This document shows positions 2,856 through 50,669 of a stretch of DNA of 64,000 nt, in pieces. The DNA comes from Cytophagales bacterium (GTDB taxonomy: Bacteria; Bacteroidota; Bacteroidia; Cytophagales; Thermoflexibacteraceae): NCBI GenBank assembly GCA_038209965.1, contig JBBQXF010000003.1, positions 25,420-89,419 on the forward strand. Direction: 5' to 3'. The notes below the pieces were generated by a model. It was not told the DNA's origin, did not search any database, and was given only the letters and a program-made list of their open reading frames with translations. Position numbers and translations under genes: made by a program. Positions within the stretch are counted from its first letter, which is position 1, and each line of letters starts with the position of its first letter.

Positions 2856-3131
2856 TTGGGGGGATAACTAAAGCTTAATCGGTTGCGGTGGCTTAAGGAC
2901 TCCGCCAAATTAGTCAGGCGTTGGCTAACGGGCCCACTTCGCGATCAATTCATTGGCCGATCACCCGTTGAGGGCTTTTTTGGCAGTGCCCGACCAGTTC
3001 GCGCCAAGCTTTTGCTTAAAGTGGTCATATTGTCCACTTTTCTTCTATCTTTGACCCACAGATCTTTTGCCTTTTTATCAAAGAACTAGTTCTGCACTTA
3101 AAACCAACTGGGGTTCAATAGGCAAGTAAAT

Positions 3132-3866
3132 ATGCAAAAAATAATTGCAATCGTCAACCACAAAGGGGGCGTGGGCAAATCGACCACCACGCATAACCTG
3201 GGCAGGGCATTGGCCATTATGGGCAGAAAAGTGCTCATCATCGACAATGACCCGCAGGCCAACTTGACCACCTCCACGGGTACGACTGCTCCTGCCAAGT
3301 CGATCTACTCCGCCTTGTGTGAAGATGAGCCGTTGCCCATCCATGCAGTGGCCCAAAATCTCGATCTGGTACCTTCCGAACTAGAATACACCAAGGCCGA
3401 GTATAAGTTGCAGTCCGATATCAAGGGGTATTTCAAAATGCGCAAGGCATTGGAGAAATTGACGGGCTATGATTTTGTGCTCATCGACTGCCCGCCGAGC
3501 TTGGGCATCTTAACGCTCAACGCGCTGATTGCGGCCAATTCGGTGCTAGTGGTGGTGCAAAGCTCTTTCCTGTCGGCCAAGGGACTGCAAACCATCCTCG
3601 ATGTGGTCAAAGATATCAAGGACGACCTCAACCCGCGCCTCGAGGTGGAGGGCTTTCTGCTCACCCAAGCCAACAACACGGTCATCCGGCGCGACATTGC
3701 CGAGTGGGTGCGCGAAAACTACCAAGGCAAGGTGTTCCAAACGTTGATCCGTCAGAATGTGGCCCTGGAAGAAGCTACCGCTAGGGGACAAGATATTTTT
3801 CAATACAATGCCCATTCCAACGGGGCCGAAGATTACCGCAATTTGGCCAAGGAAGTGGCCGGTTGA
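3132..3866 (+). CDS. parA: ParA/Soj/MinD-family partition ATPase.
   Basis: Deviant Walker A KGGVGKST; IIDNDPQANLT; Walker B-like VLIDCPPSLG. Overall ParA family signature, 244 aa. Confidence 0.85.
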   Translation: MQKIIAIVNHKGGVGKSTTTHNLGRALAIMGRKVLIIDNDPQANLTTSTGTTAPAKSIYSALCEDEPLPIHAVAQNLDLVPSELEYTKAEYKLQSDIKGYFKMRKALEKLTGYDFVLIDCPPSLGILTLNALIAANSVLVVVQSSFLSAKGLQTILDVVKDIKDDLNPRLEVEGFLLTQANNTVIRRDIAEWVRENYQGKVFQTLIRQNVALEEATARGQDIFQYNAHSNGAEDYRNLAKEVAG

Positions 3867-3908: not shown

Positions 3909-4439
3909 ATGGACTTCAATAAACTGAGTAACCAACTGGGCGGCAAGCTGCGGGAAGGCGCAGACAAGCTCCAACAAAAAGGGGGAGAGCTGTTGGCCAA
4001 GATCGACCTCCCGAATTTACAAGAGGCGGGCCTAAATGCAGCCAACGAGTTGGTGGCCGAGTTCAACCAATCACTGCCGCTGATCCCCGAGGCGGGCTAC
4101 CGCTTGCGGGAGTTTGAAGTGGAGCTGGGCCTGCCCCCCAAGGCCAAGGCCCATTTTGAACTCATCGAGACCATCAGCCCCGAAGAGCAAGCAGTCATAT
4201 TGGTCAAGGCCAAGGCCCTGGGCCGCATGAGCGATCTGGTCTTTTCGGCCCTGTTCAAGGCCCACCAATTGCAAAACACCATCAAGCTGGGCAATTTAAA
4301 AATGAAGGAAATCGAGATCGAAATCGGCATCATTCCCTCAGTGATCATCAAGTTCCGGCCCTCCATCCAGTTTATACCCTTGCCGCTGGCCTTGGTGGAG
4401 AACCACCCAGGGGAACTCCCGCTCACTTTGGGGCAATGA
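3909..4439 (+). CDS. Hypothetical 176-aa protein directly downstream of parA. It is a possible ParA partner or adaptor and is not ParB-like.
   Basis: ORF lies 43 bp after parA on the same strand. No recognisable ParB/HTH motif. Two beta-strand-like segments with alternating pattern (EFEVELGLPPKAKAHFELIE / EIEIEIGIIPSVIIKFRPS). Confidence 0.45.
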   Translation: MDFNKLSNQLGGKLREGADKLQQKGGELLAKIDLPNLQEAGLNAANELVAEFNQSLPLIPEAGYRLREFEVELGLPPKAKAHFELIETISPEEQAVILVKAKALGRMSDLVFSALFKAHQLQNTIKLGNLKMKEIEIEIGIIPSVIIKFRPSIQFIPLPLALVENHPGELPLTLGQ

Positions 4440-10807: not shown

Positions 10808-12553
10808 CTACCGACACCCAGTTTTATTGAACGCCTCAATGGCGAAATAATAGGGCTGTCCCACGGTCAAGGCCCGCAGTTCGAGCGCATTGGGTTCGTT
10901 ATGCCAAATTTGGTACGTTTGGTACAACTTGTTTGGCGCAATCCCCCACAGAATATTATAGCCCACCACGCCGGGAACTTTGGCCCAAGTGATAAAAGCG
11001 TTGCGTTCATCTTGGTCGCGCTTGACTACCAATTGAGCCGGGGTTTTTGGGATTTTCCCTGATCCAAGGCTAAAGACCCGGAAATCACTGACCGCCAAAT
11101 TTGGTGCAGCCACGTGCAAATGTTCCTATTTGAGATAACGAGTTTTGACTGGTTTGTCCAGTTCCACGTAGGCGCAGGGGCGATCCTGTTTGGGTTGCTG
11201 GGTCAGATCGGTCAGCAGTTCCCACGTTTTGCCATCCAGCGAATGGTACATCTTGAATTGGGTATATACTTTGGCTGGGTCGTTGTCATAAATATTGGAT
11301 TTGTAGTCCACATAATTGATCTGGTAAGCATTTACTTCGCACGGCTTTTCCAGATCCAAAACTAGTGTTTCCCCGGTACGGTTCTGGCCAGCCACCCAAA
11401 AAGTGCGGGGGTTTTCGCCGGTCAATTTTACGGTGTTGAAAGTATCGCGCACCGACGAAGCCACCCCCCGCTTTTGGTAGGCGAGCAGCATCCAGCCGGT
11501 GAACAGTTCATCTTTGTCCTCCCATTTTTTGGTGGGCAACCGATGGGGGAAATCACCAAACCGGGTGTTGGCAAACAGTTGGTTATCTTGGTCAAAGCCG
11601 GTGGGAAACATGGCAATGCGCCGTTCCATTTGCCAGTTTACCGCGATCCAGGGCGTGCCGGTGTTCCAATAATTGCCGTAATTGTCCTGAAATGTGTTGC
11701 CGTGGCCGGCCCCGTTCATGTAACCGCCAGGTTTGTAGGAGATCGGGTTATAGGGGGCATAAGTAAACGGGCCGAGGGGATCGTCGCCCACGTAGGTGCC
11801 ATTGGCATACACGTTGTATTCGGTGCCGGGTGCGCCATATTGCAAAAAATAATTCCCTTGGTGTTTGGTCATCCATGCCCCTTCGGTGAAAGGTTTGATG
11901 GTGTCGCGGTGATTGTGGCCAAACCATTCCCAGCCATATTTTTCGGGCTGGAAACGGTTTGGCCGTAATAATTGTTCTTGGTTTTGTAGGTCAAAATGGC
12001 GGTCTTTGTCCAACTCGGCCCCGTAGAGCGGGAACACATTGGACGATCCTCAGTACATGTACCAGCGGTCGGTGTCGGGGTTATGGAACAGGGCCGGATC
12101 CCACAGGCCCACGAGCGGGGACAGGCGGGGCAGCCAGCGGTTATAAAACTGCAATTTTCCTTTTTCCGGCTCGAGGCTGATAAAAATGGGGCGTTGCTCA
12201 AAAGTGGACTGAAAAAGATAGAGCGTATCACGCACCGACAACGCCGCCGGGGCACACATGTCTTCCATGGGCCATTTATCGGGCACTACATACCGCCAAT
12301 TGATCAGATCTTTCGAGTGCCACCATCCCCCAGAAATGGTGACAAATAAGTAATGTTCCCCTTTGTGGTTGATAATGACCGGATCGGCCCCCGAACGGTA
12401 CGAAATACTGTCATTGAGCTGCTCAAAATTGTATTTATAGTCAACGTCCATTGGGTTACAATAGGTCTTTTGGGCAGACTGCGCGAAGGCATGTTGCGTT
12501 AGGCCAACCAAACAGCAGATAAATAAGTAGTTTTTCATTCTCGATTTGATCAA
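10808..12553 (-). pseudogene. GH43-family glycoside hydrolase with a C-terminal discoidin/FN3-like module, interrupted by an in-frame TGA (12050-12052) and an in-frame TAG (11126-11128).
   Basis: Signal peptide MKNYLFICCLVGLTQHAFAQ. NPMDVDY…ADPVIINHKGEHYLFVT (GH43 propeller start). The three ORFs 12050..12553, 11126..12037 and 10808..11119 are in one frame and read continuously across the stops (…WYMY*GSSNVFP… ; …RYLK*EHLHVA…). Confidence 0.65.
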
Positions 12554-12602: not shown

Positions 12603-12650
12603 AAAAAAAGCCGCCCGTGGGTTCGGGCGGCTTTTGGGAAGCACAAAAAA
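12603..12650. terminator. Bidirectional Rho-independent terminator.
   Basis: AAAAAAAGCCGCCCG-tgggtt-CGGGCGGCTTTTGG: a GC hairpin flanked by an A-run and a T-run. Confidence 0.6.
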
Positions 12651-12947
12651 TTACTCAGCGTCTTCGTCGGCAGCTTCTCCGCTAGCTTCCTCATCATCTT
12701 CGTCTGTTTCCTTGTCTTCGTCCTCTGCATTTACTTCTTCGGCATCTTCGGTTTCAGCTTCTTCGGCATCTCCGTCAGAATCAAGGATAGTGGTGGGTTC
12801 GGCCACTTCGTCTTCTTCTTCAGTTTCAGTTTCTTCGGCATCTTCGTCGGAAGCAAAGAGGGTGGTGGGTTGGGTCAACAGGGCTGGGAACAGGGTTTCG
12901 TTGGTGGCCAAGGATCCAGTCGCAATTTTTGATTGGGCTATTTGCAT
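12651..12947 (-). CDS. Highly acidic 98-aa protein (D/E about 45%), a DNA-mimic or anti-restriction-like candidate.
   Basis: MQIAQSKIATGSLATNETLFPALLTQPTTLFASDEDAEETETEEEDEVAEP…DEDDEEASGEAADEDAE. It is followed on its own strand by the terminator above. The opposite-strand Ser-rich ORF (12577..12957) is low complexity and lacks such signals. Confidence 0.5.
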   Translation of the reverse strand: MQIAQSKIATGSLATNETLFPALLTQPTTLFASDEDAEETETEEEDEVAEPTTILDSDGDAEEAETEDAEEVNAEDEDKETDEDDEEASGEAADEDAE

Positions 12948-12959
12948 GATCGTGTGAGT

Positions 12960-13210
12960 TTAAAAACTTGTGGCAATTTACACTTCAACTTGTATTGGGG
13001 TGTGAATTCCAGTTTGTATTATTGTGAACTTATGATTACTATCCGTTCGGCTTGGGTATTACCGATGAGTATATGAGCCAATTTTTTTTAGTTTTTTTAT
13101 TGATTTTTATTCATCAAAAAAGACGCTTTTAGCTATTTATAATTAACTTACTTTAAAATAACTATCTTAGACAATCCATAATACCTTGATTGTTAGATAT
13201 ATAAAAGCGC
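12960..13210. promoter_or_regulatory. AT-rich region (putative DNA-unwinding element) of a plasmid-type origin.
   Basis: Long A/T tracts (ttttttttagtttttttattgatttttattcatcaaaaaag…) immediately preceding the iteron array. Confidence 0.5.
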
Positions 13211-13212
13211 AG

Positions 13213-14071
13213 TTTGCTACAATTTAGTGAATAGAATCCATTTTGGTGCTACCAATTAGTGAATAAACTGGGGCTAGATGCTACTAAAATGTGTATTTTT
13301 TGGGTGAGGTGCTACTTGTTTGTGCATTTAATTTTTCATTCACTTGCCATCCAAGCGTTAGCCAGCATAATTTTTTGGATCACTTTTTTTGAACGTTTTT
13401 CGCTTTGGGTGGCCATTTGGCGCACATAAAAATCTTTTTTGCTCCCAAGATAGCCATTTTCATCCTGCTACTCCTCTCCAACCTTGAAAACGATCTGGCA
13501 ATCTGTGCCAGTTTGGCCAGAAATCAGGATTTTGCCCGCTAGGTCGACTATTCCCCCACCGCAGCTAATGGAAGGGGTTTCATTTATCGATCTGCTACAA
13601 AATAGTGCATTGCTGGGTGGGCCATTCAACGCGGGTCTGCTACAATATTGTGCAGGTTTGGCCACCGGATTAGCTGCTACAAAATAGTGCATTGGGGCGG
13701 ACAGAACCGCCAATCGCGGCAAAGTGCTACAAAATAGTGCATTTTGGGCAACTTTAAACCAGGCTAAATCCCGTGTTAGACTGGGTTAAGTGACTTTTTT
13801 TTGATAATTATCAATAATTTTTTCAACCTGTTGGGTTAACTGCTACAACATTGTGCATTATAGTTCAGTGCAATAGTTCTCATGGGATTTAGAGGGCAAG
13901 GATCGGCTTGCCTTGCAACCCAGCTTCGGTTCCACACTTTTAGCTGCTACAAAAACGTGCATTATTTTTTTGCACAATGAAAACCTTATTTTTGGGCTTG
14001 ATAGCTGCTACAAATTTGTGCATTAAAAAATTATCAAAATACGTGCTACAATTCTTTGGAATTGTAGCACG
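13213..14071. repeat. Iteron array: about 12 direct copies of a ~20-bp motif (consensus GCTGCTACAAAATAGTGCATT) plus one palindromic pair. Putative oriV.
   Basis: Copies at ~13213, 13247, 13278, 13306, 13591, 13637, 13673, 13722, 13838, 13934, 14003, and the inverted pair GTGCTACAATTCTTTGGAATTGTAGCAC at ~14042. Spacing is irregular and the copies are imperfect. The array sits directly upstream of the rep gene. Confidence 0.8.
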
Positions 14072-14159
14072 TTCGTTTTAACTTTCGCCTTCAGTTCAAC
14101 CCACCGGTCAGGTTTAGTTCAAGCACGGCCCGTTTTTGAACGCTAAAACACCAAAGCCC

Positions 14160-15503
14160 ATGATGATGGACATAACCAAGAGCGAGATCGTCAAAGTTGA
14201 AAAAACTGACAAAAAGCGCCATCCAATCCATTACACCGTTTTTCATCCCAATGTGCTCATCGGGGTCAATACCGAGTTGAAACTGGCCGAGCAGCGGCTT
14301 TACATGGAGATCTTGAACTTTAACCACCAAGCCGAGCCAGACCGGCTCGACTATGAGATCCCCTACGAGTTCATCACCCACAGCACCGACCCGAAGGTGA
14401 TCCAAAAGAAAGCCCACCAAGAGTTTACCCGCATTGCCGAGGTACTCCAAAAACGGGTCTTCCGCTTGGACAAAGAGTTTATGCAGACGCACTTCAACGA
14501 AAAGTACGCCGTCACCATCAACCCTTTCCCGGTCATCAAATACAAGGAAAAACATTTTCAAGTCCGGCTGAACGAGTACCTCAAGGCCGTTTTGGTGAAA
14601 CTCGAGATGGGTTTCACCAAGGGGGACATCGAGTTGCTGCGCGCATTCCGCAGCGAATATTCCTACCTGATGTACTGGCTCATCCGCCGCGAGCAATGGA
14701 AGCACAAAGCCGGAGTTTTGGATTTTGCCCTCGATGAGCTAAAAAAAGAACTGGGCTGCACGGATCAGTACGAAGGCCGGTTCAATAATTTCAAGGCCCG
14801 GGTGTTGGATGTGGTCCACGAGGAGTTTCAGGGCACTTGGGTCGAGTTTGACTACGAGATCCTGCGCGGGGGCAAGGGCGGCAAGGCCATTCAGAAAATC
14901 TTGTTCAAGTTTGGCACCGATTTCCAACAAGAACAGAAACTGGCCCTGGCCGAAAACCGCTATGCTTGGGAAGGCGAGCTGCTCCAACTCGGTATTGGGG
15001 AGAAGGAAGTGCTCCGTTTCCGCGACTATGTGGCCAACCAGCAACCGCTCAAGGACGGTCAAGTCTGGGACAGCTTTTATGTGCACACGTGCATGGCCAT
15101 AGCCCGGGAAAACTATCGGAACAAACGGCTCAACGTGCAAGCCAAAAAAATAGCCAATACGGCCAATTACCTTTATTCGGCCTTGGTGCAAGGATGGTGG
15201 GTGAAAGAGGTGGAGTTTCGCCGCCAACTGCCCAGCTCGCCCGCCCGGCCCCCGGCCAGCCTGTTTGCCGAATTGCCGGCCAAAGTAAAGCTGTCCCCCG
15301 AATCTGTCCAGTTGACCGTTGATCCGCCCGTTAAGAGCAGTGTTGGACTGGCCCCGCCACGGACGAAGTTCCGGTTGCCTTACGTCGATTTTATGGAAAC
15401 CTACCGTGCTTATTTGTCCATCAGCAAAGAGCCGATGAGCGAGCCAGATTTTGCGGCCAAACTGGGCTACAAAATCTCCGGTGACTACGTGGAGAAGGTT
15501 TGA
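14160..15503 (+). CDS. rep: Plasmid-type replication initiator, Rep_3 (RepB/RepA iteron-binding) family.
   Basis: …KRHPIHYTVFHPNVLIGVNTELKLAEQRLYMEILNF… matches the Rep_3 'l.l.EqRL….il' core. Located immediately downstream of the iteron array. The ORF track starts at TTG 14136; ATG 14160 is likelier. Confidence 0.75.
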   Translation: MMMDITKSEIVKVEKTDKKRHPIHYTVFHPNVLIGVNTELKLAEQRLYMEILNFNHQAEPDRLDYEIPYEFITHSTDPKVIQKKAHQEFTRIAEVLQKRVFRLDKEFMQTHFNEKYAVTINPFPVIKYKEKHFQVRLNEYLKAVLVKLEMGFTKGDIELLRAFRSEYSYLMYWLIRREQWKHKAGVLDFALDELKKELGCTDQYEGRFNNFKARVLDVVHEEFQGTWVEFDYEILRGGKGGKAIQKILFKFGTDFQQEQKLALAENRYAWEGELLQLGIGEKEVLRFRDYVANQQPLKDGQVWDSFYVHTCMAIARENYRNKRLNVQAKKIANTANYLYSALVQGWWVKEVEFRRQLPSSPARPPASLFAELPAKVKLSPESVQLTVDPPVKSSVGLAPPRTKFRLPYVDFMETYRAYLSISKEPMSEPDFAAKLGYKISGDYVEKV

Positions 15504-15546
15504 CAAAAGTGGACACATTGTCCACTTTTTTTTGATCCGATCAAGC
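15497..15546 (+). terminator. Intrinsic terminator hairpin that is copy 1 of a ~50-bp direct repeat.
   Basis: TGACAAAAGTGGACA-cat-TGTCCACTTTTTTTTGATCCGATCAAGCCAC, a 12-bp stem plus T8. It is nearly identical to 17163-17212. Confidence 0.65.
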
Positions 15547-15833
15547 CACTTTCCCCCAGCGGAATATGAAGTGCGGTGTCCCAAAATTGCTTTTTCAACT
15601 GACTTCTTATGGCTTAGCCGTTTAGAGAAAGGAAAAAATCAAAACTTCTCGTACTTTTTTCAATCCCATTTTTCCGGAAAAGTAGCTTTTGGGGTGAAAT
15701 ATTGCTTCTACACGCTGATTTACCTTGGTTTGGTGGACTGTTGCTCACAAACATTCGCCAGTTAGTTTTTGTATAATAGTGACATTATTTTGCGACAGTA
15801 TCTGGAAGTTCATTCACCAAATCCGCTACTTAT

Positions 15834-17063
15834 ATGTCTGTAATAACTACCGAGAAAGAAACACAGATCAGTTTTGACTATGCGCTGGCGCAGCAGATCG
15901 TCCAACTCAATATTCAGGATGAAGCTTTGGACGGGCGCATGATTACCGTCAATGGCTGCCCCATGATAAACTTTGGCAACTGCTCTTACTTGGGGCTGGA
16001 ACTGCACCCGGCAATTAAAGCCGGAGTTATGTTGATGACGCAGCGATACGGATCCTTGTACGCCAGTTCCCGTTCGTATGTGGGCTTGGGCATTTTTGAA
16101 GAATTAGAAGACTTGATGGAACAAATTTTTGGTGGGCCAACATTGATGGCCACCTGTACGACCATGGGCCACTTGGGGGTCATCCCGGTTTTGGTGGGGC
16201 CCCATGATGTGGTGATCATGGATCAGCAGGTACATGCCTCAGTCCAAATGGCGGTTTCTTGCCTAAAAGGGAGTAATCCGGCTCAACAAGTGGAAAAAAT
16301 CAAGCACAACAACTTGGCTATGCTTGAGAACCGGATACAAAAGCTAAGCGTGGGGAACAACAAAATCTGGTACATGGTTGATGGGGTCTATTCCATGTTT
16401 GGTGATGTAGCCCCGATCCCTGAAATCCTGGAACTGATGGATCGGTATGACAACCTGTATTTGTATTGTGACGATGCGCACGGAATGTCATGGACGGGAC
16501 GCCACGGGGCGGGTTTTTTCCGCAGTCGCTGTGCCTATCACCCTCGGGTAGTATTGTCGACCTCGCTTGGCAAAGGGTTTGGGGCGGCCGGAGGCACATT
16601 TACTTTCCCAAATCAAGAAATGAAACACAAAGTCCGCTCGCTGGGTGGCACTTTCATTTTTGCAGCCCCGTTGTCCCCTCCCTTGTTGGGAGCTTGCCTA
16701 GCTTCGGCCAGAATCCATCTGAGTGACGAGCTTGCTCCCTTGCAAGCGGCCCTGCGAGTCCGGATTGATCATTTTGTGAAAGTGGCCCAGGAACTTAAAT
16801 TGCCCTTGGCCGGATCGGCCGAAACCCCCGTGCAGTTTGTAGTGATTGGCAAAGCCGAAAATGCCGTTGACGTGGTCAAACGCTTGCACCAGCGCGGTTT
16901 TTATGTAAACATGAGTGCTTATCCGATTGTGCCCCAAGGGAAGGGTGGGTTGCGCATTACACTGACCAACCACCTGAGCTTAAATGATTTGAGTAATTTG
17001 GCGAAGGCTGTCCGCGAAGAATTGGATGAGCAGGTAAAGCTTGTCCAGTCGGCAACTCGCTAG
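15834..17063 (+). CDS. Alpha-oxoamine synthase family PLP enzyme (8-amino-7-oxononanoate synthase / serine palmitoyltransferase-like).
   Basis: 409 aa. GSLYASSRSYVG, DDAHGMSWTGRHG, STSLGKGFGAAGG (PLP-lysine region) are typical of the BioF/SPT/KBL family. Confidence 0.8.
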   Translation: MSVITTEKETQISFDYALAQQIVQLNIQDEALDGRMITVNGCPMINFGNCSYLGLELHPAIKAGVMLMTQRYGSLYASSRSYVGLGIFEELEDLMEQIFGGPTLMATCTTMGHLGVIPVLVGPHDVVIMDQQVHASVQMAVSCLKGSNPAQQVEKIKHNNLAMLENRIQKLSVGNNKIWYMVDGVYSMFGDVAPIPEILELMDRYDNLYLYCDDAHGMSWTGRHGAGFFRSRCAYHPRVVLSTSLGKGFGAAGGTFTFPNQEMKHKVRSLGGTFIFAAPLSPPLLGACLASARIHLSDELAPLQAALRVRIDHFVKVAQELKLPLAGSAETPVQFVVIGKAENAVDVVKRLHQRGFYVNMSAYPIVPQGKGGLRITLTNHLSLNDLSNLAKAVREELDEQVKLVQSATR

Positions 17064-17162
17064 GTTTCCCGTGAAGTCAAAACCGAACTATTACTGGCCT
17101 AATGTTAGTCATTTTTTGGGCCAAATTGATTTTTTCCTTACTCCGGTCATTGGTTGACTGGT

Positions 17163-17212
17163 GTACGCCTGACAAAAGTGGACACATTGTCCACTTTTTT
17201 TTGTTCCGATCA
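17163..17212 (+). terminator. Copy 2 of the 50-bp terminator-hairpin repeat.
   Basis: TGACAAAAGTGGACACATTGTCCACTTTTTTTTGTTCCGATCAAGCCAC, 1 mismatch to copy 1. Confidence 0.65.
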
Positions 17213-18757
17213 AGCCACAAAATTCAATACTTCGTGCCAACTGAGCCACTCACTGCGGCGGTCCGGGGTATCATTGAGGCCGCCACCGCCCTTGCGGGAG
17301 TAGAAAGCGGTTCCCCATTTGGTACTACTGATGTCCACTTGGGCAAATATATGGTGGGGCAGGTTAAAAAAGCTGTCACTGATCGTTTGATCGCTGGGGC
17401 TGAGGCGCAGGTTGCCCTCGGGCTGGGTGCGGAACCAACCCACGGTATCCAAGTGGGTTTGTTGCAGGGCATTGTCCAAGGCCAACCAAGCGGGCAAACC
17501 AAAAATCACCTTGCGCGGGTTTTGCTCGGCAATCGGGGCAGTGGTCACATAATCGATCGATACCAAATACCGCTGGGCCGAAGGGACATAAAAAGATCGG
17601 CCCAACAGAAACCCCCCGGATTTGGGGACAAAGCCAGCATGGGAGGCGGAAGTTTGTTGGATGAGGTCGCGGATCTGCCGGGCTGCGTTTTGGTGGATGT
17701 AGAGTGAAAGCACCGAACTGTCGGCCCAAGCCCGGTCGAGCCGCACTTGGGAATATTTGGATTGTTCGCGCCCTTCCGTGATTTCGTAAAAATGGTTGGC
17801 AATGGGATCTTGGGAGGGCTGCAAAATGAAGGTCCGGCTCCGATCGGCGGCCACTGGGGCGGCCTTGTCGGTATTGACCACCTTGATTTCTTGTTGGGGA
17901 TTGGCCTTGGGTTTTTTTGCAGGCTCCGATTTTTGGGCTGGCTTTTTGGGCTCATCGTCCTCGGTTGGCCGTCTTTTGCCACTGCGGAGCCACGCGATCA
18001 AGGCCCCGATGGCCGCAAAAAGCCCAGCTACGCCCCCCGTAATCCAGCCCCACAGCGGAATATTGGGGAGTCCGGGGATGCTCGGGGTGCTCGGGGTTGC
18101 ATTGTTCAATGCCCGGTTGCCCTCGTCTTTTACCTCTTCCTTCACCCGGTTTTCCACCTCGGTCTGGAATTCGCTCTTGCCTTGGTCTGTACCTTTGGTG
18201 TTGTCTTGGACGGGTTCAGTTTTCACCACGTTTTTGTCCGCTTGGCTGCTACTGCTGTTGTTGTCGTTGGCCACCGATCCGGTAGCGGCCAGCAGGGTGT
18301 AATTGATCGCCACCGTTTTGAGCGGGCGACGGGGCGGGGCTTCGCCCAGTTCTTCGGTTGCAAAACCAATCTTGAGCGTTCCTTTGGTAGTGGCCGTGGC
18401 CACGATGTTGTAGGTGATCTCGCAAATAAATTTGTCGCACAGGCAGGAAACGAACGTGAGCCCCGGGGCTTTGGCGGGCACCCATTTGTCGTAGGTCTTC
18501 AGTTCCAGCAGTTCGCGCTGGTCGGCGGCGGCTTCCAACGTGGCATGGATCAGCAATTTGCCATTGGGGCCAATCCGGGCCTCAAAAGCCCCGCCTTGGA
18601 TGCCGGCCAATTGACTGCGATCCCGCCCGTGGGCCAAGATCAGGGGGGCCGTCACTTTTTGTCGGTTAAAGGTGTAGGTAAGGTCTTGGGCGGCTGACTG
18701 GGCCAGTGCCCCAACTGAAAAAATCAAAGTGAAAAATATCTTTTGCCAAGCATTCAT
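17210..18757 (-). CDS. Single-pass membrane protein: signal peptide, ~190-aa extracytoplasmic domain, TM helix, Lys/Pro-rich linker, and a C-terminal JAB/MPN domain with all catalytic residues substituted (MPN-minus).
   Basis: MNAWQKIFFTLIFSVGALAQSAAQ signal; TM WGWITGGVAGLFAAIGALIAWL. The C-terminal …GWFRTQPEGNLRLSPSD aligns to the JAMM motif HxHx7SxxD with H->R and H->Q. The upstream E-motif is replaced (PKSGGFLLG). Confidence 0.55.
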   Translation of the reverse strand: MNAWQKIFFTLIFSVGALAQSAAQDLTYTFNRQKVTAPLILAHGRDRSQLAGIQGGAFEARIGPNGKLLIHATLEAAADQRELLELKTYDKWVPAKAPGLTFVSCLCDKFICEITYNIVATATTKGTLKIGFATEELGEAPPRRPLKTVAINYTLLAATGSVANDNNSSSSQADKNVVKTEPVQDNTKGTDQGKSEFQTEVENRVKEEVKDEGNRALNNATPSTPSIPGLPNIPLWGWITGGVAGLFAAIGALIAWLRSGKRRPTEDDEPKKPAQKSEPAKKPKANPQQEIKVVNTDKAAPVAADRSRTFILQPSQDPIANHFYEITEGREQSKYSQVRLDRAWADSSVLSLYIHQNAARQIRDLIQQTSASHAGFVPKSGGFLLGRSFYVPSAQRYLVSIDYVTTAPIAEQNPRKVIFGLPAWLALDNALQQTHLDTVGWFRTQPEGNLRLSPSDQTISDSFFNLPHHIFAQVDISSTKWGTAFYSRKGGGGLNDTPDRRSEWLSWHEVLNFVA

Positions 18758-22936: not shown

Positions 22937-23403
22937 GCAGCAACTATCACATAAGTTTAGGTGCATGACGGGAAATTTAAAGAAGAAGGCAGTCGTGCCT
23001 GTTTTTGTTGTGCCCAAATGACCAAAGCAAGACGTGGCAACTCGGGGAATTTACGGCGCGGGCTGTCCCGCGGTTCTCGGTGAGATGCAGCGTCAGGGGA
23101 TTTCCAAAAAAGAAAAAGGATTCGGTGTTTGAAAAAGGGGCTGAATTTTCCGGCTGTACATTGTGCCCACGAGCCACCAAAAAATGATGGTTGAAGTCAA
23201 GCGATGGGTGGTGAAAAGGAGGATTGGATGAACATCCTTCGCCGAAACACCGAAGACGACGAAAGGATCGCCGGGCCGTCCCAAGTCGGCTACTTTTAAC
23301 AAACTAAATAATTATATCACGGTGAATTTAGACATAACGCCAAGCCAAATTATCCATTTAGCTCCAAATAAAATTGCAGTAATTTTTGTTGTTCAACGGC
23401 GAT

Positions 23404-24168
23404 TTACAAATTTTCGCCTTGCAAGATAGCAAGAAGATCAGTTTTTTTCCGGCGAGAAACCTCGAGTGATTTTCCGTCGGCCATAACAACCATTCCCCCA
23501 TCATTTTTGATATATTTGCGCACATGGTTGAGGTTTACTATGTGAGATTTATGTATCCTGAAAAAAAGATTGCGCGGCAGCATTTCTTCGATCTGGGAAA
23601 GCGTTTTGGAAACACAGATAGACTGTTTGTTGCTCGAGTGCACAAAGGTATAGTTGGATTCGGCAATACAGTACAATAGGTCGGAAACCTGCAGCACATC
23701 AAAACCTTCCAAAGTGGGTAAGCACACCTTGACATCCCTTGGGCTGGTCAGGGATAAGTTATGAAACAATGTCTGATACATTTTTGCAGCATGTTGGACG
23801 CTAAACACGTGACGTACTTGCTCCAAAGCGCTTAAAAATAGATTTTCTTCTATGGGTTTGAGCACATACGACACCGCCGAATATTGAAATGCCTGTAAAG
23901 CATAATCATGGTGGGCAGTCACGAAAATAATCAGAAAATCAATGCGTTGCAAATTTTTGAGCATCTCAAAGGCATTGGAAGGAGGCAAGGAAATATCCAG
24001 AAATACCAAGTCTGGTTTGAATTGCTCAATCATCTGTTGGGCACTTTGGGCAGTATCAGCTTCTCCTATCACAACAATGTCCGGGCTGTATTTGCCCAGT
24101 AGATGTCGCAAAATAGACCTGTTTTCTTTCTCATCATCCACAATCAAACTTCTTATAGTGGGGGTCAT
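23404..24168 (-). CDS. LytTR-family two-component response regulator.
   Basis: Receiver domain LIVDDE…DLVFLDISLP. C-terminal LytTR DNA-binding domain (…FFRIHKSHIVNLNHV…). Confidence 0.85.
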   Translation of the reverse strand: MTPTIRSLIVDDEKENRSILRHLLGKYSPDIVVIGEADTAQSAQQMIEQFKPDLVFLDISLPPSNAFEMLKNLQRIDFLIIFVTAHHDYALQAFQYSAVSYVLKPIEENLFLSALEQVRHVFSVQHAAKMYQTLFHNLSLTSPRDVKVCLPTLEGFDVLQVSDLLYCIAESNYTFVHSSNKQSICVSKTLSQIEEMLPRNLFFRIHKSHIVNLNHVRKYIKNDGGMVVMADGKSLEVSRRKKTDLLAILQGENL

Positions 24169-24201
24169 ATAGGTTTTTGGGAATAAAGTAAAATTAGTGC
24201 A

Positions 24202-26259
24202 TCAAATAGGTATTTCTATGTGGATGCTGGTTCCTGTGTGGCGGTTACTACTTACGGAAAAGCTCGCTTTTTCTGTTTTTCCACTATTCCATAAGTCAAA
24301 ATAATTTTTGATAATCGCCATGCCTTTGGATTGGTGCGCCGAAGGATTACTGTTTTCTTGGAAACCGTTCCCATTGTCAATGATTTCGCAATGTAAAAAA
24401 AACTCAGATTCTATAAATCTAATGAGTAGCTTTTTCTCTCTTTTAATGGGAACCAAGCCGTGAATAATGGCGTTTTCCACAAATGGCTGGATAAGCATCG
24501 GGGGGACTTCGAGCAGTTCGGGGGCTTCTTCGCCTTCGTAGTCAATACTAAACTGAAAATCTTCACCAAAACGCAGTCTCTCGAGCTCAATGTACATACG
24601 CAGATACGCAATGTTTTGTTGGAGGCTAACGCGCAAGTGAGCTGAATTTTCGAGGGTTGTGCGCATCAGGCTGGCAAATTTACTGAGATAAATGGAGGCT
24701 TGCTCATTTTTCTCCGCAAGTACCAATGACTTGATGGTATTGAGGCAATTGAACAAGAAGTGCGGATTAAGCCGTGTTTGAAGAGCATACAATTGCATTT
24801 CTTGCAGCTGTTGCTGGAATTGTATCCGGGTTTTCTCTTCTTTTGTTGCTTGCAGTACGTAGGTTTGGGCGACAATTTCGGTGGTTTTGGCCGCTACTTC
24901 CTGTTCCAATCGCAGGTTCAGGCTGGCCATAAACGTTTTCTTTTCTTCCAGTTGCGCAATGATGACTTTTTGAAAGCGATTTTTTTCTTCGCTATCCAAT
25001 AAAAGTTTTCTTCCCAAAGCCAAAGCAAAAAATAAAATTTCTATGAGCGTTCCGATTTGCATAAAATTATTTGGAAAAAACGGTTCACTGAAAGAACTGA
25101 AATTTCCAAAAAGTATACCCAAGATATTACCTAGATAGAAACTAAATGACCCCCAAAAGAGGTATTTGGAAAATGGAATATTGCGAAGTGTCCACAATTG
25201 CCAGAACAAGAACAGATAAAATACAAATAGGCCATAAAAGAACACACTGTTGATGATGATAAACCCGAACAACACCTGAACATCAAATCCGAACAGTAAA
25301 GCCCCCATATTAGCTGACCAAAGCAAAGCGCACACGATGTTGATAAAATATAAAATTTTGTACAGCAAGGGCTTGTTGTTCTTTATCGTCAAAAACTGCA
25401 TCAGGAAAAGATGATACCCGATCAGATAGACGTAGGCAACAATTTCTTTGGCATAAATCCAGCGCTCGGGGAACTCCCAAATATACCAAGCATTGAAATG
25501 TAAGGGAAAGACATCTAATACCCCAAATAAAAGGACTCCGATCAGATACCATGCATAATACCCAAAATCAGGCAACTTATTTTGAATATAAATGGCCAGA
25601 AAAAAGCATATCATTATCAGCAGTGCCCCTACATAAAGGTTACTAATAAAACCGCTATTTCTTTTGCTAATCTCTTGCTTTTGTAATAAATTCATGTAGC
25701 CTGTCCCATTAAAAGCCGTAATATGAGTATCGGCTTTACGGTTGGGTAAGTCATAGAAATGCAAAGTAACGTTTTGCTGCTGGTTGGCGGGTATAGTATA
25801 ACTGAGGGTTTGCAGATTTTGCGAAGATTGACGGTAGCGTACGGGTACCAAAAAACCATTATAAGCCACTTGGTTATTGGTTTCCGATACTATCAAACCA
25901 TTGATCCCCCTTCTACTGCGTACCATATCTATCGAACTTTGTTTGAATAAATCTTGGCTGCCTACGTAGATAAAAAAAGTAGAGGCTTGTGGTTGGTCAT
26001 TGTACAAACAAAACGACAGACTGGTTTTGTACACCCAGAAATCCAGGAATCCAGTCTTGGGGGTGGTAGCTGGTTTCGGCACGGGCGAAGGTTGATTGCC
26101 GATGTTGATGGGACTTTTTTCCGCCAATATTGATGCTCGCAGGGTGTCTTGGGCCCGTAAAGCGCCCACCGAGGATAGCGATAATACAATAAAAATGTAT
26201 AAAAATAGATTTTTTGAAATATTTGAAACAATACTGATCATAAATTCTTGAAAAACCAT
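24202..26259 (-). CDS. 7TMR-DISM sensor histidine kinase of the LytS/His_kinase (PF06580) type.
   Basis: N-terminal extracellular domain, 7 TM helices, coiled coil, LNPHFLFNCLNTIKSLV H-box, HATPase_c end. Adjacent to the LytTR regulator. Confidence 0.85.
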   Translation of the reverse strand: MVFQEFMISIVSNISKNLFLYIFIVLSLSSVGALRAQDTLRASILAEKSPINIGNQPSPVPKPATTPKTGFLDFWVYKTSLSFCLYNDQPQASTFFIYVGSQDLFKQSSIDMVRSRRGINGLIVSETNNQVAYNGFLVPVRYRQSSQNLQTLSYTIPANQQQNVTLHFYDLPNRKADTHITAFNGTGYMNLLQKQEISKRNSGFISNLYVGALLIMICFFLAIYIQNKLPDFGYYAWYLIGVLLFGVLDVFPLHFNAWYIWEFPERWIYAKEIVAYVYLIGYHLFLMQFLTIKNNKPLLYKILYFINIVCALLWSANMGALLFGFDVQVLFGFIIINSVFFYGLFVFYLFLFWQLWTLRNIPFSKYLFWGSFSFYLGNILGILFGNFSSFSEPFFPNNFMQIGTLIEILFFALALGRKLLLDSEEKNRFQKVIIAQLEEKKTFMASLNLRLEQEVAAKTTEIVAQTYVLQATKEEKTRIQFQQQLQEMQLYALQTRLNPHFLFNCLNTIKSLVLAEKNEQASIYLSKFASLMRTTLENSAHLRVSLQQNIAYLRMYIELERLRFGEDFQFSIDYEGEEAPELLEVPPMLIQPFVENAIIHGLVPIKREKKLLIRFIESEFFLHCEIIDNGNGFQENSNPSAHQSKGMAIIKNYFDLWNSGKTEKASFSVSSNRHTGTSIHIEIPI

Positions 26260-26386
26260 TCAATAAATAGATAATACCATTCCCCCTTTAAACCCTACCG
26301 TTCACTCACTTGTTCAGTTTTTCTTGTTTAGTTCGCATACCTTTGAAAGGTCAAATATTGGGTTTAACGCTAAAATATACGTAACG

Positions 26387-27784
26387 ATGAAAAAACGCAC
26401 TTATTTTATACTTATCGGTGGTTGTTTGTTTGCTCATTTGTCTTTTGGTCAGATCATAGACCCTAAGCAAACCGCCAAACAGAAAAGTACCGACCGTGTC
26501 AATTCCCGCATCGATCAAGGCATAGACAAGGGCTTGGACAAAGTAGAAGGTCTGTTTAAGAAGAAAGAAAAGAAGCCTAAAAATGGTAAGAAAGACGAAA
26601 ATTCGGATGAAAACACCAATGAAGACAACTCCAACGGGAACAACTCCAACGGGAACAACTCCAACGGTAACAATTCCAACGGTAACAATTCTAACGGCAA
26701 AAACAGCGGAAACGGTAACTCGTCTGCGGGTAACCAAACACCAAGTTTTAAAACCTATTCCAAATTTGATTTTGTACCCGGCGAAAAAGTCATTGCTTTT
26801 GATGATTTTGCCACCACAAGCGTTGGAGATTTTCCTTTGGGCTGGAACACCAACTCCACGGCAGAAATTGTAACCATTGACGGCGACTCCAAAAAGTGGC
26901 TTTTTATGTCCAGAGATGGATTCTTTCAGCCTGAATATGTAAAAGATATGCCCGAAAATTTTACGCTGGAGTTTGATGTTCTCACTCGCTATGCATCTAA
27001 TAACATTTTAAAATATTCCTTTTATTTATCTGCTGTTGAGAATCCTAGAAAAGATTTATCCAATGCATACATCAAAAATGGAATTTACTTTGGCTGGCGA
27101 CCTTGTGCGGGCGAAAGTGGCTATATTGTATATGCAAACAGTGAAGAAGTTAGTCAAAATGCGGGTTTGAGTATCGCACAATTCGAATCTCAAACTTGTA
27201 GTGTACCTATTGTGGCGAAAGTGTCTATCTGGCGACAAAAAACACGCTTGCGTATGTATGTCAATGAAACCAAAGTATTGGATATTCCGCAAGCCTTTGA
27301 TGCAAAACTCAAATACAACGCCTTTAAATTTGGCAGTGCTCAGATGAACTTCTCTAACGGCAGACAAAACGATGATGAGTTTATGGTATCTAACATTCGC
27401 TATGCCGTGGGTGCTCCAGATATGCGTTCCAAACTTATCACCGATGGCAAACTCGTTACCAGAGGGATTACTTTTGATGTGGGTTCGGATAAAATAAAGC
27501 CCGAAAGTTTCGGGGTACTCAAAGAAATAGCTCAGGTGCTTTCCGAAAATCCTACGGTAAAAGTAAAAATCATTGGCCATACCGACTCTGACGGCAACGC
27601 CGCCAGCAACTTAGAACTTTCTAAAAAACGAGCTGCTGCCGTTAGCAAAGCCCTTACTTCGGATTTTAAAATTGATGCCTTACGCATGCAAACCGATGGC
27701 AAGGGGGCAGCCGAACCCTCCGAACCCAACGCCACGCCACAGGGCAAAGCGAATAACCGGCGGGTGGAGTTTGTTAAATTGTAA
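26387..27784 (+). CDS. OmpA-family protein with an NSNGN low-complexity repeat linker and a C-terminal OmpA/peptidoglycan-binding domain.
   Basis: Signal MKKRTYFILIGGCLFAHLSFGQ. C-terminal …TFDVGSDKIKPESF…GHTDSDGNAASNLELSKKRA…NRRVEF (OmpA_C). Confidence 0.8.
   Translation: MKKRTYFILIGGCLFAHLSFGQIIDPKQTAKQKSTDRVNSRIDQGIDKGLDKVEGLFKKKEKKPKNGKKDENSDENTNEDNSNGNNSNGNNSNGNNSNGNNSNGKNSGNGNSSAGNQTPSFKTYSKFDFVPGEKVIAFDDFATTSVGDFPLGWNTNSTAEIVTIDGDSKKWLFMSRDGFFQPEYVKDMPENFTLEFDVLTRYASNNILKYSFYLSAVENPRKDLSNAYIKNGIYFGWRPCAGESGYIVYANSEEVSQNAGLSIAQFESQTCSVPIVAKVSIWRQKTRLRMYVNETKVLDIPQAFDAKLKYNAFKFGSAQMNFSNGRQNDDEFMVSNIRYAVGAPDMRSKLITDGKLVTRGITFDVGSDKIKPESFGVLKEIAQVLSENPTVKVKIIGHTDSDGNAASNLELSKKRAAAVSKALTSDFKIDALRMQTDGKGAAEPSEPNATPQGKANNRRVEFVKL
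26623..26700. repeat. 15-bp tandem repeat (AACAACTCCAACGGG, about 5 units) encoding the NSNGN repeats.
   Basis: Direct reading of 26620-26700. Confidence 0.8.
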
Positions 27785-27880
27785 ACGACTACCCAAGAAA
27801 TCTACAAGGCTTTCAAAAGCCTTGTAGATTTTTAAAATAAAACCTAAAACTTTCAATTTAATCACAAAGTATAAATTTCT

Positions 27881-28660
27881 ATGATAAGGACAATCGGTAT
27901 TTTAATATGTATGTGCCTGCTTTCTGCTTGTGATAAAAAAGGGCAAGAGAAAGACAAAAATGATTTGAATAAAATAATCTCCGAGACAATCCCCGATGGA
28001 GGAGAGGCAAATACAACCATTGGTAAATGCCTCATGGAAAAGGATATGAGAGAAATACTTACGCCAGATTTGGTACAAGAGTTTTTGGGTGTACCAGTTA
28101 GTAAAGCCAAAGAAGAGGAGATTGAGAAAACATCATTTGTCAATAAGCTCGAATATACAGATGAAGATAATCCTAGAGGCACAAAAAAAGTTGAATTAAT
28201 GAAAGGCTTAATTCAGGATTTTCCCGTTGAAAATGTAATAGGTATTAGTTATATCAGAACTACCGACTTACCCACTTTCAAAAACTTTTACCGTAATGCT
28301 ACCGATGAAGATTTGGCGAAAATGGAAAAAGCAATGAACAGCCCTGAGACCAAGAAAAAACAGCAAGAAATGCTTGACAAACAGAACCTATCACCCGAAA
28401 TGCGTAAAGTAGTCGAAGAATCTCTCAATGCTGGCAAAGACAAAGACATAGCTCGTGGACTTTCTACAGGAGCGAAAGAAAGGTTTGAAGAAGCTTCGGG
28501 TGTAGGCGAATACTGTATCTGGAACAAGCAAGAACAAATGCTGCTTGTCTACACCTCTAATGTTCAAATAGGGGTAAGCGTAAATACGTCGGATGATAAA
28601 GCTTCTAATAAAGCAAAGGCTACCGAACTTGCCAAAAAGATATTAGCTAAATGCCAGTAA
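27881..28660 (+). CDS. Hypothetical lipoprotein (low-GC island), paralog of the next gene.
   Basis: Signal plus lipobox LLSAC. 259 aa, Lys/Glu-rich. C-terminal …LAKKILAKCQ resembles …AKEVLKKCK of the downstream gene. Confidence 0.6.
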   Translation: MIRTIGILICMCLLSACDKKGQEKDKNDLNKIISETIPDGGEANTTIGKCLMEKDMREILTPDLVQEFLGVPVSKAKEEEIEKTSFVNKLEYTDEDNPRGTKKVELMKGLIQDFPVENVIGISYIRTTDLPTFKNFYRNATDEDLAKMEKAMNSPETKKKQQEMLDKQNLSPEMRKVVEESLNAGKDKDIARGLSTGAKERFEEASGVGEYCIWNKQEQMLLVYTSNVQIGVSVNTSDDKASNKAKATELAKKILAKCQ

Positions 28661-28719
28661 ATCCTAATCTTAGAAATATTAAAATCTACTTGTTAAGAAT
28701 GTTCCAAACGTAAAATCTT

Positions 28720-29505
28720 ATGAAAAAAATAACATTATTGCTTTTAGGCATTGCGTTTGCTTTATCAGCTTGCAACAAAACTGACCAAAAAAAAGCAGGT
28801 ATCAGCGAAAGTGATGCTAAGGATGTTGAAAAAATCTTGAGCGAGAACGGTGGTGAAGGCTGCTTTATTCCTTATCAAGCCAAAGTCTGCGAACTTATAG
28901 ACAAGGAAACTATCGCCCAAATACTTGGTGTTGATGCGGGTAAAATGACAGTAATGGATGTGTTTAAAACTTTGCACGAGAGTGGTAAAAATAAAGATAA
29001 GCCCTACAAAGGATCTCAATCTGCCATTTGTGATTATGAATGGGAAGATGAGACTAAAAAAATAAAGGAATATATACCAGGATTAGGCAAAGAAGTTGAC
29101 CTGCCTATGTATGCAAAGGTTCAAATAACTGGTTTGGCACTTCAAAAAAACGTAGCAAGTTTTAAGCAAACTCACCGTAGTGTGAGTAAAGACGAAATGG
29201 AGGAGGCTGGTAAAAACGCAAGCGAGCGAATAGATAAAAGTGGTAAACACACCAAACAAGAAGTAAACACCGCCACAGATATGCTCAACGCATTGTCAGA
29301 AGCGCAGGTGGTAACCTATCTGAATGATTTGGGTGAAGTCGCCGCCAGCACTCGCTCCAAACTTAGTGGTGAGCAAGCCGAACTCGCTGTATATTATCGT
29401 GGCAATCAGTTTCAGGTATATGTAAATATGGGAGGCAAAACACACGCCCAAAACTTAGAACTTAGTGTGCAAATTGCCAAAGAAGTACTTAAAAAATGCA
29501 AGTAA
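28720..29505 (+). CDS. Hypothetical lipoprotein (low-GC island).
   Basis: Signal plus lipobox ALSAC. 261 aa. Shared C-terminal motif with 27881..28660. Confidence 0.6.
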   Translation: MKKITLLLLGIAFALSACNKTDQKKAGISESDAKDVEKILSENGGEGCFIPYQAKVCELIDKETIAQILGVDAGKMTVMDVFKTLHESGKNKDKPYKGSQSAICDYEWEDETKKIKEYIPGLGKEVDLPMYAKVQITGLALQKNVASFKQTHRSVSKDEMEEAGKNASERIDKSGKHTKQEVNTATDMLNALSEAQVVTYLNDLGEVAASTRSKLSGEQAELAVYYRGNQFQVYVNMGGKTHAQNLELSVQIAKEVLKKCK

Positions 29506-29530
29506 ACCACAATTTTAACCCAAAATAAAC

Positions 29531-31236: not shown

Positions 31237-31505
31237 AGAAATAAACCTAGTTTTTGGTTGGGCAGGGTGAATGGGGCAATGCGCTGGATGTATGATAACA
31301 GTATTTTTGCTGATTGAAAATAAACGAGTTACTTGTTTCTACAATTCGTCGGCTTGGTGTAGGATCATTTATTGGGTGTTGTCATTTCTCGCCGAATAAG
31401 TAGAAAATAAACCTCTCAGTGGCTTCTCGACGACAAAATAAATTTGACCAATTGATTACCAAAGCTTAAAATATTAGTTTTTTTGCACCCAAGGCCACCT
31501 TCATT

Positions 31506-48414: not shown

Positions 48415-48689
48415 AGCGGATTAGGTAAAAACTGCTTATTCCGTGGCGGGGCAGCCGCACCCGCCAACGTGTAAGTTGGTCTGCGCGAACCGAAGCTGAA
48501 CGGTCCGCCGTCGCAATGGCATGGCGTGGATTGGCCGATTTAGCAGAAAAGTAGATGCACAAAGGAACGCCTTGTCTAGGTGGCAAGTAAGCGCAAGACG
48601 CGCTCTTACGAAGACCAGGAAGGCAATACGCGCCATGTTACAGAAGTGGTGGCGGATGGTGTAGTGCTATTGGATAAAAAAGAAAATAT

Positions 48690-49176: not shown

Positions 49177-49284
49177 AGTTCGGGTAAGTAATGGTGATGG
49201 GCTATTTTATCAGACCATATAGAACTCAAAAAAGTGAGCTTACAATTAATGTAAATCGACAAAAATATATACCTTCGCTGACAA

Positions 49285-50667: not shown

Positions 50668-50669
50668 GT

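Follow-up and report, generated by a model that had tools for sequence, protein, structure and literature searches.

What does an array of short direct repeats in front of a Rep_3-type gene represent in an uncultured Cytophagales bacterium: the origin of a plasmid, the origin of a secondary chromosome, the silent remnant of an integrated plasmid, or a set of operators unconnected with replication? The array lies in a 64-kb stretch of DNA, called the window here and meaning the whole of that stretch, and the bacterium is a relative of Bernardetiaceae and Rhodoflexus. The segment from 13050 to 15537 very probably constitutes the replication module of a plasmid-type replicon that is large (at least about 85 kb) and probably present in few copies, and it would operate by a mechanism of the RepE/pi type in which an initiator (Rep) acts on the direct repeats (iterons) upstream of its own gene. 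The module is made up of the following elements, with positions in nucleotides (nt) of the window.

13050-13210, plus strand: AT-rich block, candidate DNA-unwinding element (DUE), recognised by A+T content and conservation in the alignment of relatives.
13215-13328, plus strand: iteron cluster A, four 19-nt iterons adjoining the AT-rich block, presumed origin iterons.
13329-13592: inter-cluster spacer of average A+T content (48-65%), lineage-specific by alignment.
13593-14024, plus strand: iteron cluster B, seven iterons, presumed copy-control iterons (titration or handcuffing).
14041-14054 and 14059-14072: arms of the inverted repeat ACGTGCTACAATTC-TTTG-GAATTGTAGCACGT, 14 nt each with a 4-nt loop, presumed operator for a Rep dimer.
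14055-14086, plus strand: candidate Bacteroidota-type rep promoter, with a -33 element TTTG (14055-14058), N20 and a -7 element TAACTTTC (14079-14086).
14160-15503, plus strand: rep, encoding a Rep_3 initiator of 447 amino acids (aa), recognised by Pfam profiles, AlphaFold2 (AF2) fold and selection; an alternative TTG start at 14136 would give 455 aa.
15505-15537, plus strand: terminator-like hairpin AAAAGTGGACAcatTGTCCACTTTT followed by a T run, directly 3' of the rep stop codon and part of a 48-nt repeated element.

The initial annotation, which was made from the sequence alone, had recognised the canonical architecture of an iteron plasmid in this locus, and the AT-rich block, the iterons, the inverted half-iteron operator and the Rep_3 gene on which that view depends were all found. 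Its placement of a Rep_3-family initiator directly downstream of the repeats is likewise upheld. Profile scores and predicted fold show that Rep has both winged-helix (WH) domains of RepE and pi: Rep3_N (PF01051, WH1) scores 49.8 bits over residues 35-183 of the open reading frame (ORF), covering positions 2-140 of the 141 in the profile, and Rep3_C (PF21205, WH2) scores 34.4 bits over residues 199-259, both above the Pfam gathering scores of 22.4 and 21.1 that define membership. Numbered from the ATG, the protein comprises WH1 (about 27-175), WH2 (about 191-251), a helical domain (about 269-356), a disordered linker (360-400) and a small alpha/beta domain (405-446). The AF2 model, built on 38 homologs with a mean predicted local distance difference test score (pLDDT) of 74.8, has the three-dimensional fold of RepE and pi. 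Its top PDB match in Foldseek is the pi-iteron complex 2nra (2nra_C; E = 2.5e-7, target TM-score 0.56); further matches are the RepE dimer-operator complex 2z9o, the RepE54-iteron complex 1rep and the Rep-DUE complexes 8ac8 and 8aan, with a weaker match to domains 2-3 of RctB (5ubf), and the 46 PDB chains with E <= 1e-3 are without exception Rep proteins. A phmmer search of Rep against the PDB sequences gave no match, and the link to RepE and pi is thus one of fold comparison. The closest curated NCBIfam model, repM_Acin, scores 49.5 bits (E = 3.7e-13), so far under its cut-off of 250 bits that Rep is a distant member of the Rep_3 family and not a RepM.

The unusual feature of the module is a long C-terminal extension on the initiator, about 190 aa forming two folded parts. 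The helical part aligns to the Reps of Hymenobacter, Chondrinema and Tunicatimonas plasmids (to about residue 350), the last domain aligns only within a closer clade that includes Pontibacter, and the alignment with Acinetobacter and Geobacillus Reps ends at about residue 260. An identical 447-aa product, accompanied by the same repeat array, has been called in three metagenomes.

The iterons share the core TGCTACNNNNNNGTG (TGCTAC-N6-GTG). A scan of the whole window returned 11 copies, all on the plus strand and all within 13215-14020, and none in the remainder of the 64 kb; the chance expectation is 0.29, and not one of 100 shuffles reached 11. The 19-mer TGCTACAAAATAGTGCATT is present in three exact copies and in three with two mismatches, against 0.01 expected. 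Where the initial annotation had counted about 12 direct repeats there are therefore 11 full copies, and a twelfth is obtained only if the left arm of the inverted pair is taken as a half copy. All 11 share the strand of rep and precede its start codon by 154-945 nt; they are direct repeats in the 17-22 nt range beside a rep gene, as in iteron-type theta origins. The full repeats form two clusters with presumably distinct functions. Those of cluster A start at 13215, 13247, 13279 and 13310, a spacing of 32, 32 and 31 nt that corresponds to three helical turns; those of cluster B, with the consensus (C)TGCTACAAAATAGTGCATT, start at 13593, 13638, 13675, 13725, 13841, 13945 and 14006 at irregular intervals of 37-116 nt. 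Cluster B is also the site of a second AT-rich patch (13770-13830, 70-72% A+T), an insertion specific to the lineage of the window, inside which a perfect 14-nt palindrome, TTGATAATTATCAA, lies at 13801-13814.

On the outer side of cluster A, the AT-rich stretch that had been announced ahead of the repeats is real: A+T content reaches 73-83% at 13050-13170 against a window mean of 50.4%. Its core at 13118-13205 (AAAAAAGACGCTTTTAGCTATTTA..AACTTACTTT..ACTATCTTAGA) is kept, with many invariant columns, in relatives with 65-75% Rep identity. On sequence, this places an AT-rich element against the iterons of a theta-type origin, as a candidate for the site of unwinding.

At the other end of the array, the single inverted pair claimed by the initial annotation was recovered as a perfect structure, its two 14-nt arms being 100% complementary. 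The arms are built from TGCTACAA, the first half of the iteron, and the pair contains the only inverted half-site of the region and is conserved in a five-sequence alignment of the control region. An inverted repeat of partial iterons thus lies at what is presumably the rep promoter. The loop TTTG coincides with the candidate -33 element, and a TA..TT lying 20 nt past it is invariant in the control-region alignment. The Bacteroidota promoter consensus consists of TTTG at -33 and TANNTTTG at -7 (PMC6847099), and TTTG-N20-TAACTTTC is a plausible, if imperfect, candidate for the promoter of rep. A sigma-70 promoter scan was ambiguous, as each iteron holds TACAA(T/A), and was dropped in favour of the Bacteroidota -33/-7 consensus.

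Downstream of rep, the 48-nt element to which the terminator-like hairpin belongs (hairpin AAAGTGGACAcatTGTCCACTTTT plus T run) occurs at 15499-15548 and again, after the next gene, at 17168-17217; a partial copy with two mismatches lies at 3018-3041, about 90 nt upstream of the partition gene parA described below. The interval 15550-17170, which carries a BioF/Kbl-like aminotransferase gene, is absent from the closest relative (L004, 97% Rep identity), and the 48-nt copies therefore delimit an indel. A common terminator and a centromere-like site are both conceivable functions of the element.

Are the repeats tied to Rep? Homologs gathered from metagenomes, metagenome-assembled genomes (MAGs) and complete plasmids allow the iterons to be followed as the initiator diverges. 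The closest relatives have Reps 97% (L004, a Cytophagales MAG), 75% (L005 and L008, a Bernardetiaceae MAG and a JGI contig) and 65% identical (L006 and L007, a Rhodoflexus MAG and an ENA contig) to that of the window. TGCTAC-N6-GTG is present in all five, in 7-10 copies each that lie only upstream of rep and only on the rep strand. At 50% identity the motif is GCCTTAC-N6-AAGGC instead (at least 11 copies), at 42% (a plasmid of Pontibacter sp. G13) GACTTG-N6-AAGAC (at least nine copies), at 34% (a complete Chondrinema plasmid) GTGTAC-N6-ACTAG (at least 11 copies) and at 32% (a complete Tunicatimonas plasmid) ACCCTAGT..ATGRC (about 10 copies); three of these four more distant relatives sit on complete circular plasmids of 93-98 kb. 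The repeats keep their position and strand across the resulting five specificity groups, and in all but the most distant group they also keep two blocks set around an A/T-rich centre. Because the motif is kept at 65% Rep identity and above and replaced at 50% and below, the repeats appear to belong to Rep and not to an unrelated regulator; comparison of sequences thus supports the view that they are cognate to the Rep of the window, the motif being swapped with the protein as expected for an initiator and its binding sites.

The organisation of the control region is equally stable. The five-sequence alignment runs from the AT-rich block through the four iterons of cluster A, phased at 31-33 nt in all five sequences, a variable spacer and a variable set of iterons to the last iteron, an A-run, the inverted pair of half-iterons and the invariant TA..TT. 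The spacer (13329-13592) is unalignable between the window and the 75% relatives and is missing in the 65% relatives, and the number of iterons in cluster B differs among relatives. Most members of the clade, and the 50% relative, have exactly one inverted half-site 44-100 nt upstream of the rep start; the exception is L007, in which the annotated start is apparently too far upstream and the inverted pair falls just inside the annotated ORF. A megablast search of the 2.5-kb region against PLSDB gave no match, and the module accordingly has no close relative among the complete plasmids of that database.

These data bear directly on the reading in which the region is no origin at all, with the repeats serving as operators for some unrelated transcription factor or the Rep-like protein as nothing more than a repressor. 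The initial annotation had itself named binding by an unrelated regulator as an outcome that would overturn its proposal, and the comparative data speak against it, since the motif tracks Rep identity. Binding of the iterons by Rep is putative, the origin region has no DnaA box, and the inverted repeat taken by itself would fit an ordinary operator. Set against this are the co-variation of repeat and Rep over five groups, with the two-block format preserved in the four closest, the four phased copies beside a conserved AT-rich block for which no transcriptional role is obvious, and the fact that the homologous module is the sole annotated replication function on a complete 92.9-kb plasmid. We regard an operator array without origin function as extremely unlikely and return to the region as a replication module.

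For partition, three genes of the window come into consideration.

3132-3866, plus strand: parA, a Walker-type partition ATPase of 244 aa (Pfam AAA_31, 170 bits; CbiA, 87 bits).
3909-4439, plus strand: ORF of 176 aa directly 3' of parA, kept beside parA in four metagenome contigs.
58318-59229, minus strand: divergent ParB-N-like protein of 303 aa, about 55 kb from parA and on the opposite strand.

The parA product is a ParA ATPase of the Walker type found in ParABS systems, although it stays under the model cut-off of NCBIfam ParA_partition (E = 3.6e-33); it is 60% identical to the ParA encoded beside rep in the Rhodoflexus MAG and 65% identical to a Chondrinema plasmid ParA. The initial annotation had called this gene an orphan parA, of which parA stands on the AAA_31 and CbiA matches and orphan does not, as the conserved 176-aa ORF adjoins it. 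That ORF, which has no Pfam or NCBIfam match, may be the partner of ParA; BLASTP (E = 1.1) led to rejection of the idea that it derives from the ParB-like protein by truncation. The gene at 58318, described earlier as ParB/KorB-like, proved to encode a divergent ParB-N-like protein, and nothing KorB-specific was seen in it. It scores 13.7 bits with ParB_N (cut-off 26.3), matches TIGR04285 (Noc) at E = 2e-4 and finds no PDB sequence with phmmer. Its homologs are carried by 84 Cytophagales plasmids, usually beside parA, and many of those listed are annotated 'ParB N-terminal domain-containing protein'; the protein is 43% identical to one encoded between parA and a third gene beside rep in the Rhodoflexus MAG. 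A ParB with a ParB_N domain encoded beside parA, as in ParABS loci, is not present in the window. The parA and ParB-N-like genes are adjacent and co-oriented in the Chondrinema plasmid NZ_CP111047.1 and in the Rhodoflexus MAG. A palindrome about 90 nt upstream of parA, GTGGWCA-N3-TGTCCAC, recurs after rep and at 17175; it is the one candidate parS site seen and is equally terminator-like.

What, then, is the replicon to which the module belongs? Overlapping metagenome contigs lengthen the sequence to about 85 kb, and short contigs from several metagenomes encode the very same Rep, ParA and ParB-like proteins. Two proteins of the window have no exact match on record. Samples that contain the replicon are ENA ERZ27246954, JGI 3300007517, SRR21228674 and SRR26988077. 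Homologs of Rep occur in 33 records of a plasmid collection, all of them complete plasmids of 6.6-378 kb, mostly from Hymenobacter, Spirosoma and other Cytophagales with a few from other groups; the collection holds plasmids only, and the figure of 33 out of 33 says nothing on how often the family is chromosomal. The initial annotation had offered 'plasmid, chromid or integrated plasmid', and the plasmid-type nature of the replicon holds while the choice among the three keeps a hedge, closure of the circle not having been found. An extrachromosomal state is likely, and we consider it probable that the window is part of a plasmid.

A chromid or secondary chromosome, that is, an essential replicon driven by a plasmid-type iteron/Rep system in the manner of Vibrio chromosome 2 with RctB, would account for the large size (at least about 85 kb with joined contigs, contigs of relatives reaching 241 kb and plasmids 378 kb), for a G+C content of 52-57% that is interrupted by only two low-GC islands, for the binning of the 97% relative into a Cytophagales MAG, and for the presence of RctB domains 2-3 among the structural matches. 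Essential cargo was not found: Pfam scans showed no core gene among the window's 42 or so ORFs, the extension that was read (about 12 kb) has no core gene, tRNA or rRNA either, and tRNA and Rfam scans of the whole window came back empty, with no tRNA and no rRNA. An RlmI-like methyltransferase reaches 268 bits, far under the equivalog cut-off of 712. The genes that are carried are accessory, among them a type IX secretion system (T9SS) sorting tail, PSCyt/PSD1, glycoside hydrolase family 43 (GH43), PhoX, penicillin amidase, molybdopterin oxidoreductase and a LytTR two-component system. The rep neighbourhoods of the relatives share nothing with one another save parA, the parB-like gene and a third gene in two cases, as expected of accessory plasmids. 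A chromid is thus an unlikely alternative to the plasmid.

Nor does the module look like the silent origin of a plasmid integrated in the chromosome, or of a remnant of one. The ratio of nonsynonymous to synonymous substitution rates (dN/dS) of rep is 0.04, at a dS of 0.38, when the window is compared with its 97% relative, and 0.11 with the 75% relatives; in the former comparison the iteron and inverted-repeat columns are 95% identical as opposed to 71% for other intergenic columns. By these sequence measures purifying selection acts on gene and repeats alike, and rep is not the decaying, inactive gene that the initial annotation had allowed for as a refutation. All origin elements are intact and syntenic with the relatives, the identical Rep with the same repeat array recurs in three independent metagenomes, and neither the window nor its extensions contain an integrase, a transposase, an attachment-site-like boundary or a chromosomal core gene. 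Integration would nevertheless be in keeping with the parting of parA and the parB-like gene by a rearrangement, with the disrupted look of the neighbouring GH43 gene and with a skew minimum that is not exactly at the origin, and the extrachromosomal status of the window is itself reached by inference. On balance an integrated or remnant plasmid is very unlikely, and a plasmid-type replicon under selection is the reading that we carry forward.

Several observations weigh against that reading, or against details of it. Circular closure was not found: the extensions to the left (L014) and to the right (L020) do not overlap. No DnaA box (TTATCCACA with at most one mismatch) occurs between 12900 and 14200, where an iteron-type theta origin would be expected to have one, and matches elsewhere in the window number 12 against 13.5 expected by chance. 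The -7 candidate TAACTTTC deviates from the consensus, its last base being C and not G. The two partition genes are non-adjacent, 55 kb apart and on opposite strands, a geometry that one large inversion might explain if it took in the origin and had a breakpoint between the two genes. The roughly 190 C-terminal residues of Rep have no relative in Pfam or the PDB that would point to their role. Cumulative GC skew is lowest at 9141, some 4 kb away from the origin, and climbs steadily from there until about 62 kb; skew is -0.013 in the left arm and +0.029 in the right (block permutation p = 0.002), and in the right arm the skew is positive in genes of both strands. The same measure on the complete Pontibacter plasmid (L018 and L019), which served as a control, is monotonic with no turning point at the rep module, and GC skew is consequently weak evidence of origin firing. 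On that 92.9-kb circle the cumulative skew falls throughout, to a total of -3585, which could reflect unidirectional replication or a strand-wide compositional bias. Finally, we infer the mechanism, with its binding, opening and autonomous replication, by analogy with RepE, pi and the RepA of pPS10.

By that analogy, Rep monomers would bind the bipartite 19-nt iterons, TGCTACAA being contacted by one domain and GTGCAT by its partner. The block TGCTACAA, which is common to the iteron and the inverted repeat, is the likely target of WH2; the pPS10 literature, as quoted in bioRxiv 10.1101/2024.09.03.610885, makes WH2 the main determinant of specificity at one end of the iteron. The four phased iterons of cluster A together with Rep would form a complex that opens the AT-rich block and brings in the host helicase, and copy number would be held down by the seven iterons of cluster B through titration or handcuffing of Rep. 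Rep dimers may occupy the inverted TGCTACAA pair, and since this pair straddles the probable -33 TTTG, their binding would repress rep. Partition would be supplied by parA and the displaced ParB-N-like gene.

The surroundings of the module offer some further observations. Immediately to the left of the origin, a 98-aa ORF on the minus strand (12651-12947) encodes an extremely acidic (D/E-rich), low-complexity protein with an internal 72-nt tandem duplication; it is followed by a strong terminator hairpin (12606-12635), and the same gene is called in three metagenome contigs. Beyond it, also on the minus strand (10808-12553), a glycoside hydrolase gene with GH43 and F5/8-type-C domains appears to be split into three consecutive ORFs (12553-12050, 12037-11126 and 11119-10808) and is probably a pseudogene or the product of frameshift errors. 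The two low-GC islands, at about 23000-31500 (39-43%) and 48500-54000 (31-42%, against 52-58% elsewhere), are likely to be recent acquisitions. The first encodes a LytTR response regulator, a 7TMR-DISM histidine kinase, an OmpA-family protein and a DUF3108-like protein, and the second an AAA_15/DUF3696 ATPase that may be defence-related. On the plus strand at 38206-39297 an ORF matches the shoulder domain of the Major Vault Protein (PF11978, a eukaryotic family) with 106 bits, with weak Vault_3 and SPFH matches; the ORF that precedes it (37112-38215) has no family match. To the left of position 1, L014 adds MacB/FtsX, GtrA, an extracytoplasmic function (ECF) sigma factor, a 7TMR-DISM kinase and TetR; past position 64000, L020 (1-5247) adds a protein with a PRiA4_ORF3 domain and part of a giant protein of 3131 aa.

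Assigning the window to a plasmid-type replicon that spans at least about 85 kb and carries accessory metabolism genes means that its other genes are to be read as mobile or accessory and not as core. As a compact replicon (12.95-15.55 kb, some 2.6 kb) of defined iteron specificity, the module could be a vector backbone for genetically difficult Cytophagales. The five pairs of iteron and Rep specificity lend themselves, as a natural series, to the study of initiator/site co-evolution and of how incompatibility groups arise in Bacteroidota, a phylum for whose plasmid initiators present typing schemes give poor coverage (bioRxiv 10.1101/2024.09.03.610885). A bolder proposal is that the Rep clade of large Cytophagales plasmids (about 400-490 aa) constitutes a distinct sub-type of iteron replicon that combines four features, and this we put forward tentatively, as something rather doubtful at present. 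The C-terminal module would be the first, perhaps as a new interface for the recruitment of host helicase or primase or for Rep-Rep handcuffing; the second is the absence of a DnaA box, which would suggest opening independent of DnaA; the third and fourth are the three-turn phasing of the origin iterons and the location of all control iterons between the unwinding element and rep. Nothing in these findings overturns current understanding.

How does the module compare with systems that are already understood? With mini-F ori2/RepE and R6K gamma-ori/pi it shares a two-winged-helix initiator and direct 19-nt iterons, an AT-rich block flanking the origin iterons on their outer side, an inverted repeat that has only one half (8 nt) of the iteron in common with it and lies over the rep promoter (a predicted one here), and extra iterons beyond the minimal origin that plausibly serve copy control. 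In F the incC iterons, which lie outside the minimal origin, are used in this way. The differences are several. The Rep of the window is only 13-19% identical to the solved proteins and, because of its C-terminal extension, has 447 aa as opposed to about 250-305. Its origin is without the DnaA box of F, P1, pPS10, pSC101 and RK2. The origin iterons are phased at 31-33 nt, or three turns, instead of about 22 nt, the extra iterons all lie between origin and rep and not downstream of rep, and the candidate promoter is of the Bacteroidota -33/-7 type.

The Rep_3 (RepM/r3-type) plasmids of Acinetobacter supply the closest NCBIfam model and likewise have iterons directly upstream of rep. About four tandem 22-bp iterons are typical of these plasmids, whereas the window has 11 dispersed iterons for a replicon of at least about 85 kb. 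In the Acinetobacter records listed (6.6 and 10.1 kb) the Rep alignment stops at about residue 260, and the position of the iterons immediately upstream of rep is described in PMC9927589 and related papers.

The nearest counterparts are the Rep_3 plasmids of other Cytophagales, on whose origins we found no literature beyond automatic annotation. The Rep of Pontibacter sp. G13 unnamed2 (NZ_CP134698.1, 92.9 kb) is 42% identical and aligns over 96% of the protein, including the C-terminal extension, and it is the only annotated initiator on that circular plasmid; those of Chondrinema litorale unnamed22 (NZ_CP111064.1) and Tunicatimonas pelagia unnamed1 (NZ_CP120684.1) are 34% and 32% identical. 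In these plasmids, too, dispersed repeats (9-11 or more) occupy the 900 nt or so in front of rep, share its strand and mostly consist of two blocks around an A-rich centre. All are of large size with genes of accessory metabolism, and typing classes them as non-mobilizable. In the Pontibacter and Chondrinema records parA lies a few kb from rep; the Pontibacter gene is 6 kb upstream, much as in the window. They differ in that each has its own iteron sequence and in that the Pontibacter and Tunicatimonas plasmids, unlike the window, have no inverted half-site upstream of rep by exact match. Seen beside these systems, the module of the window is a new member, from an uncultured lineage, of the iteron/Rep_3 class of replicons, and its departures are variations within a well-understood kind.

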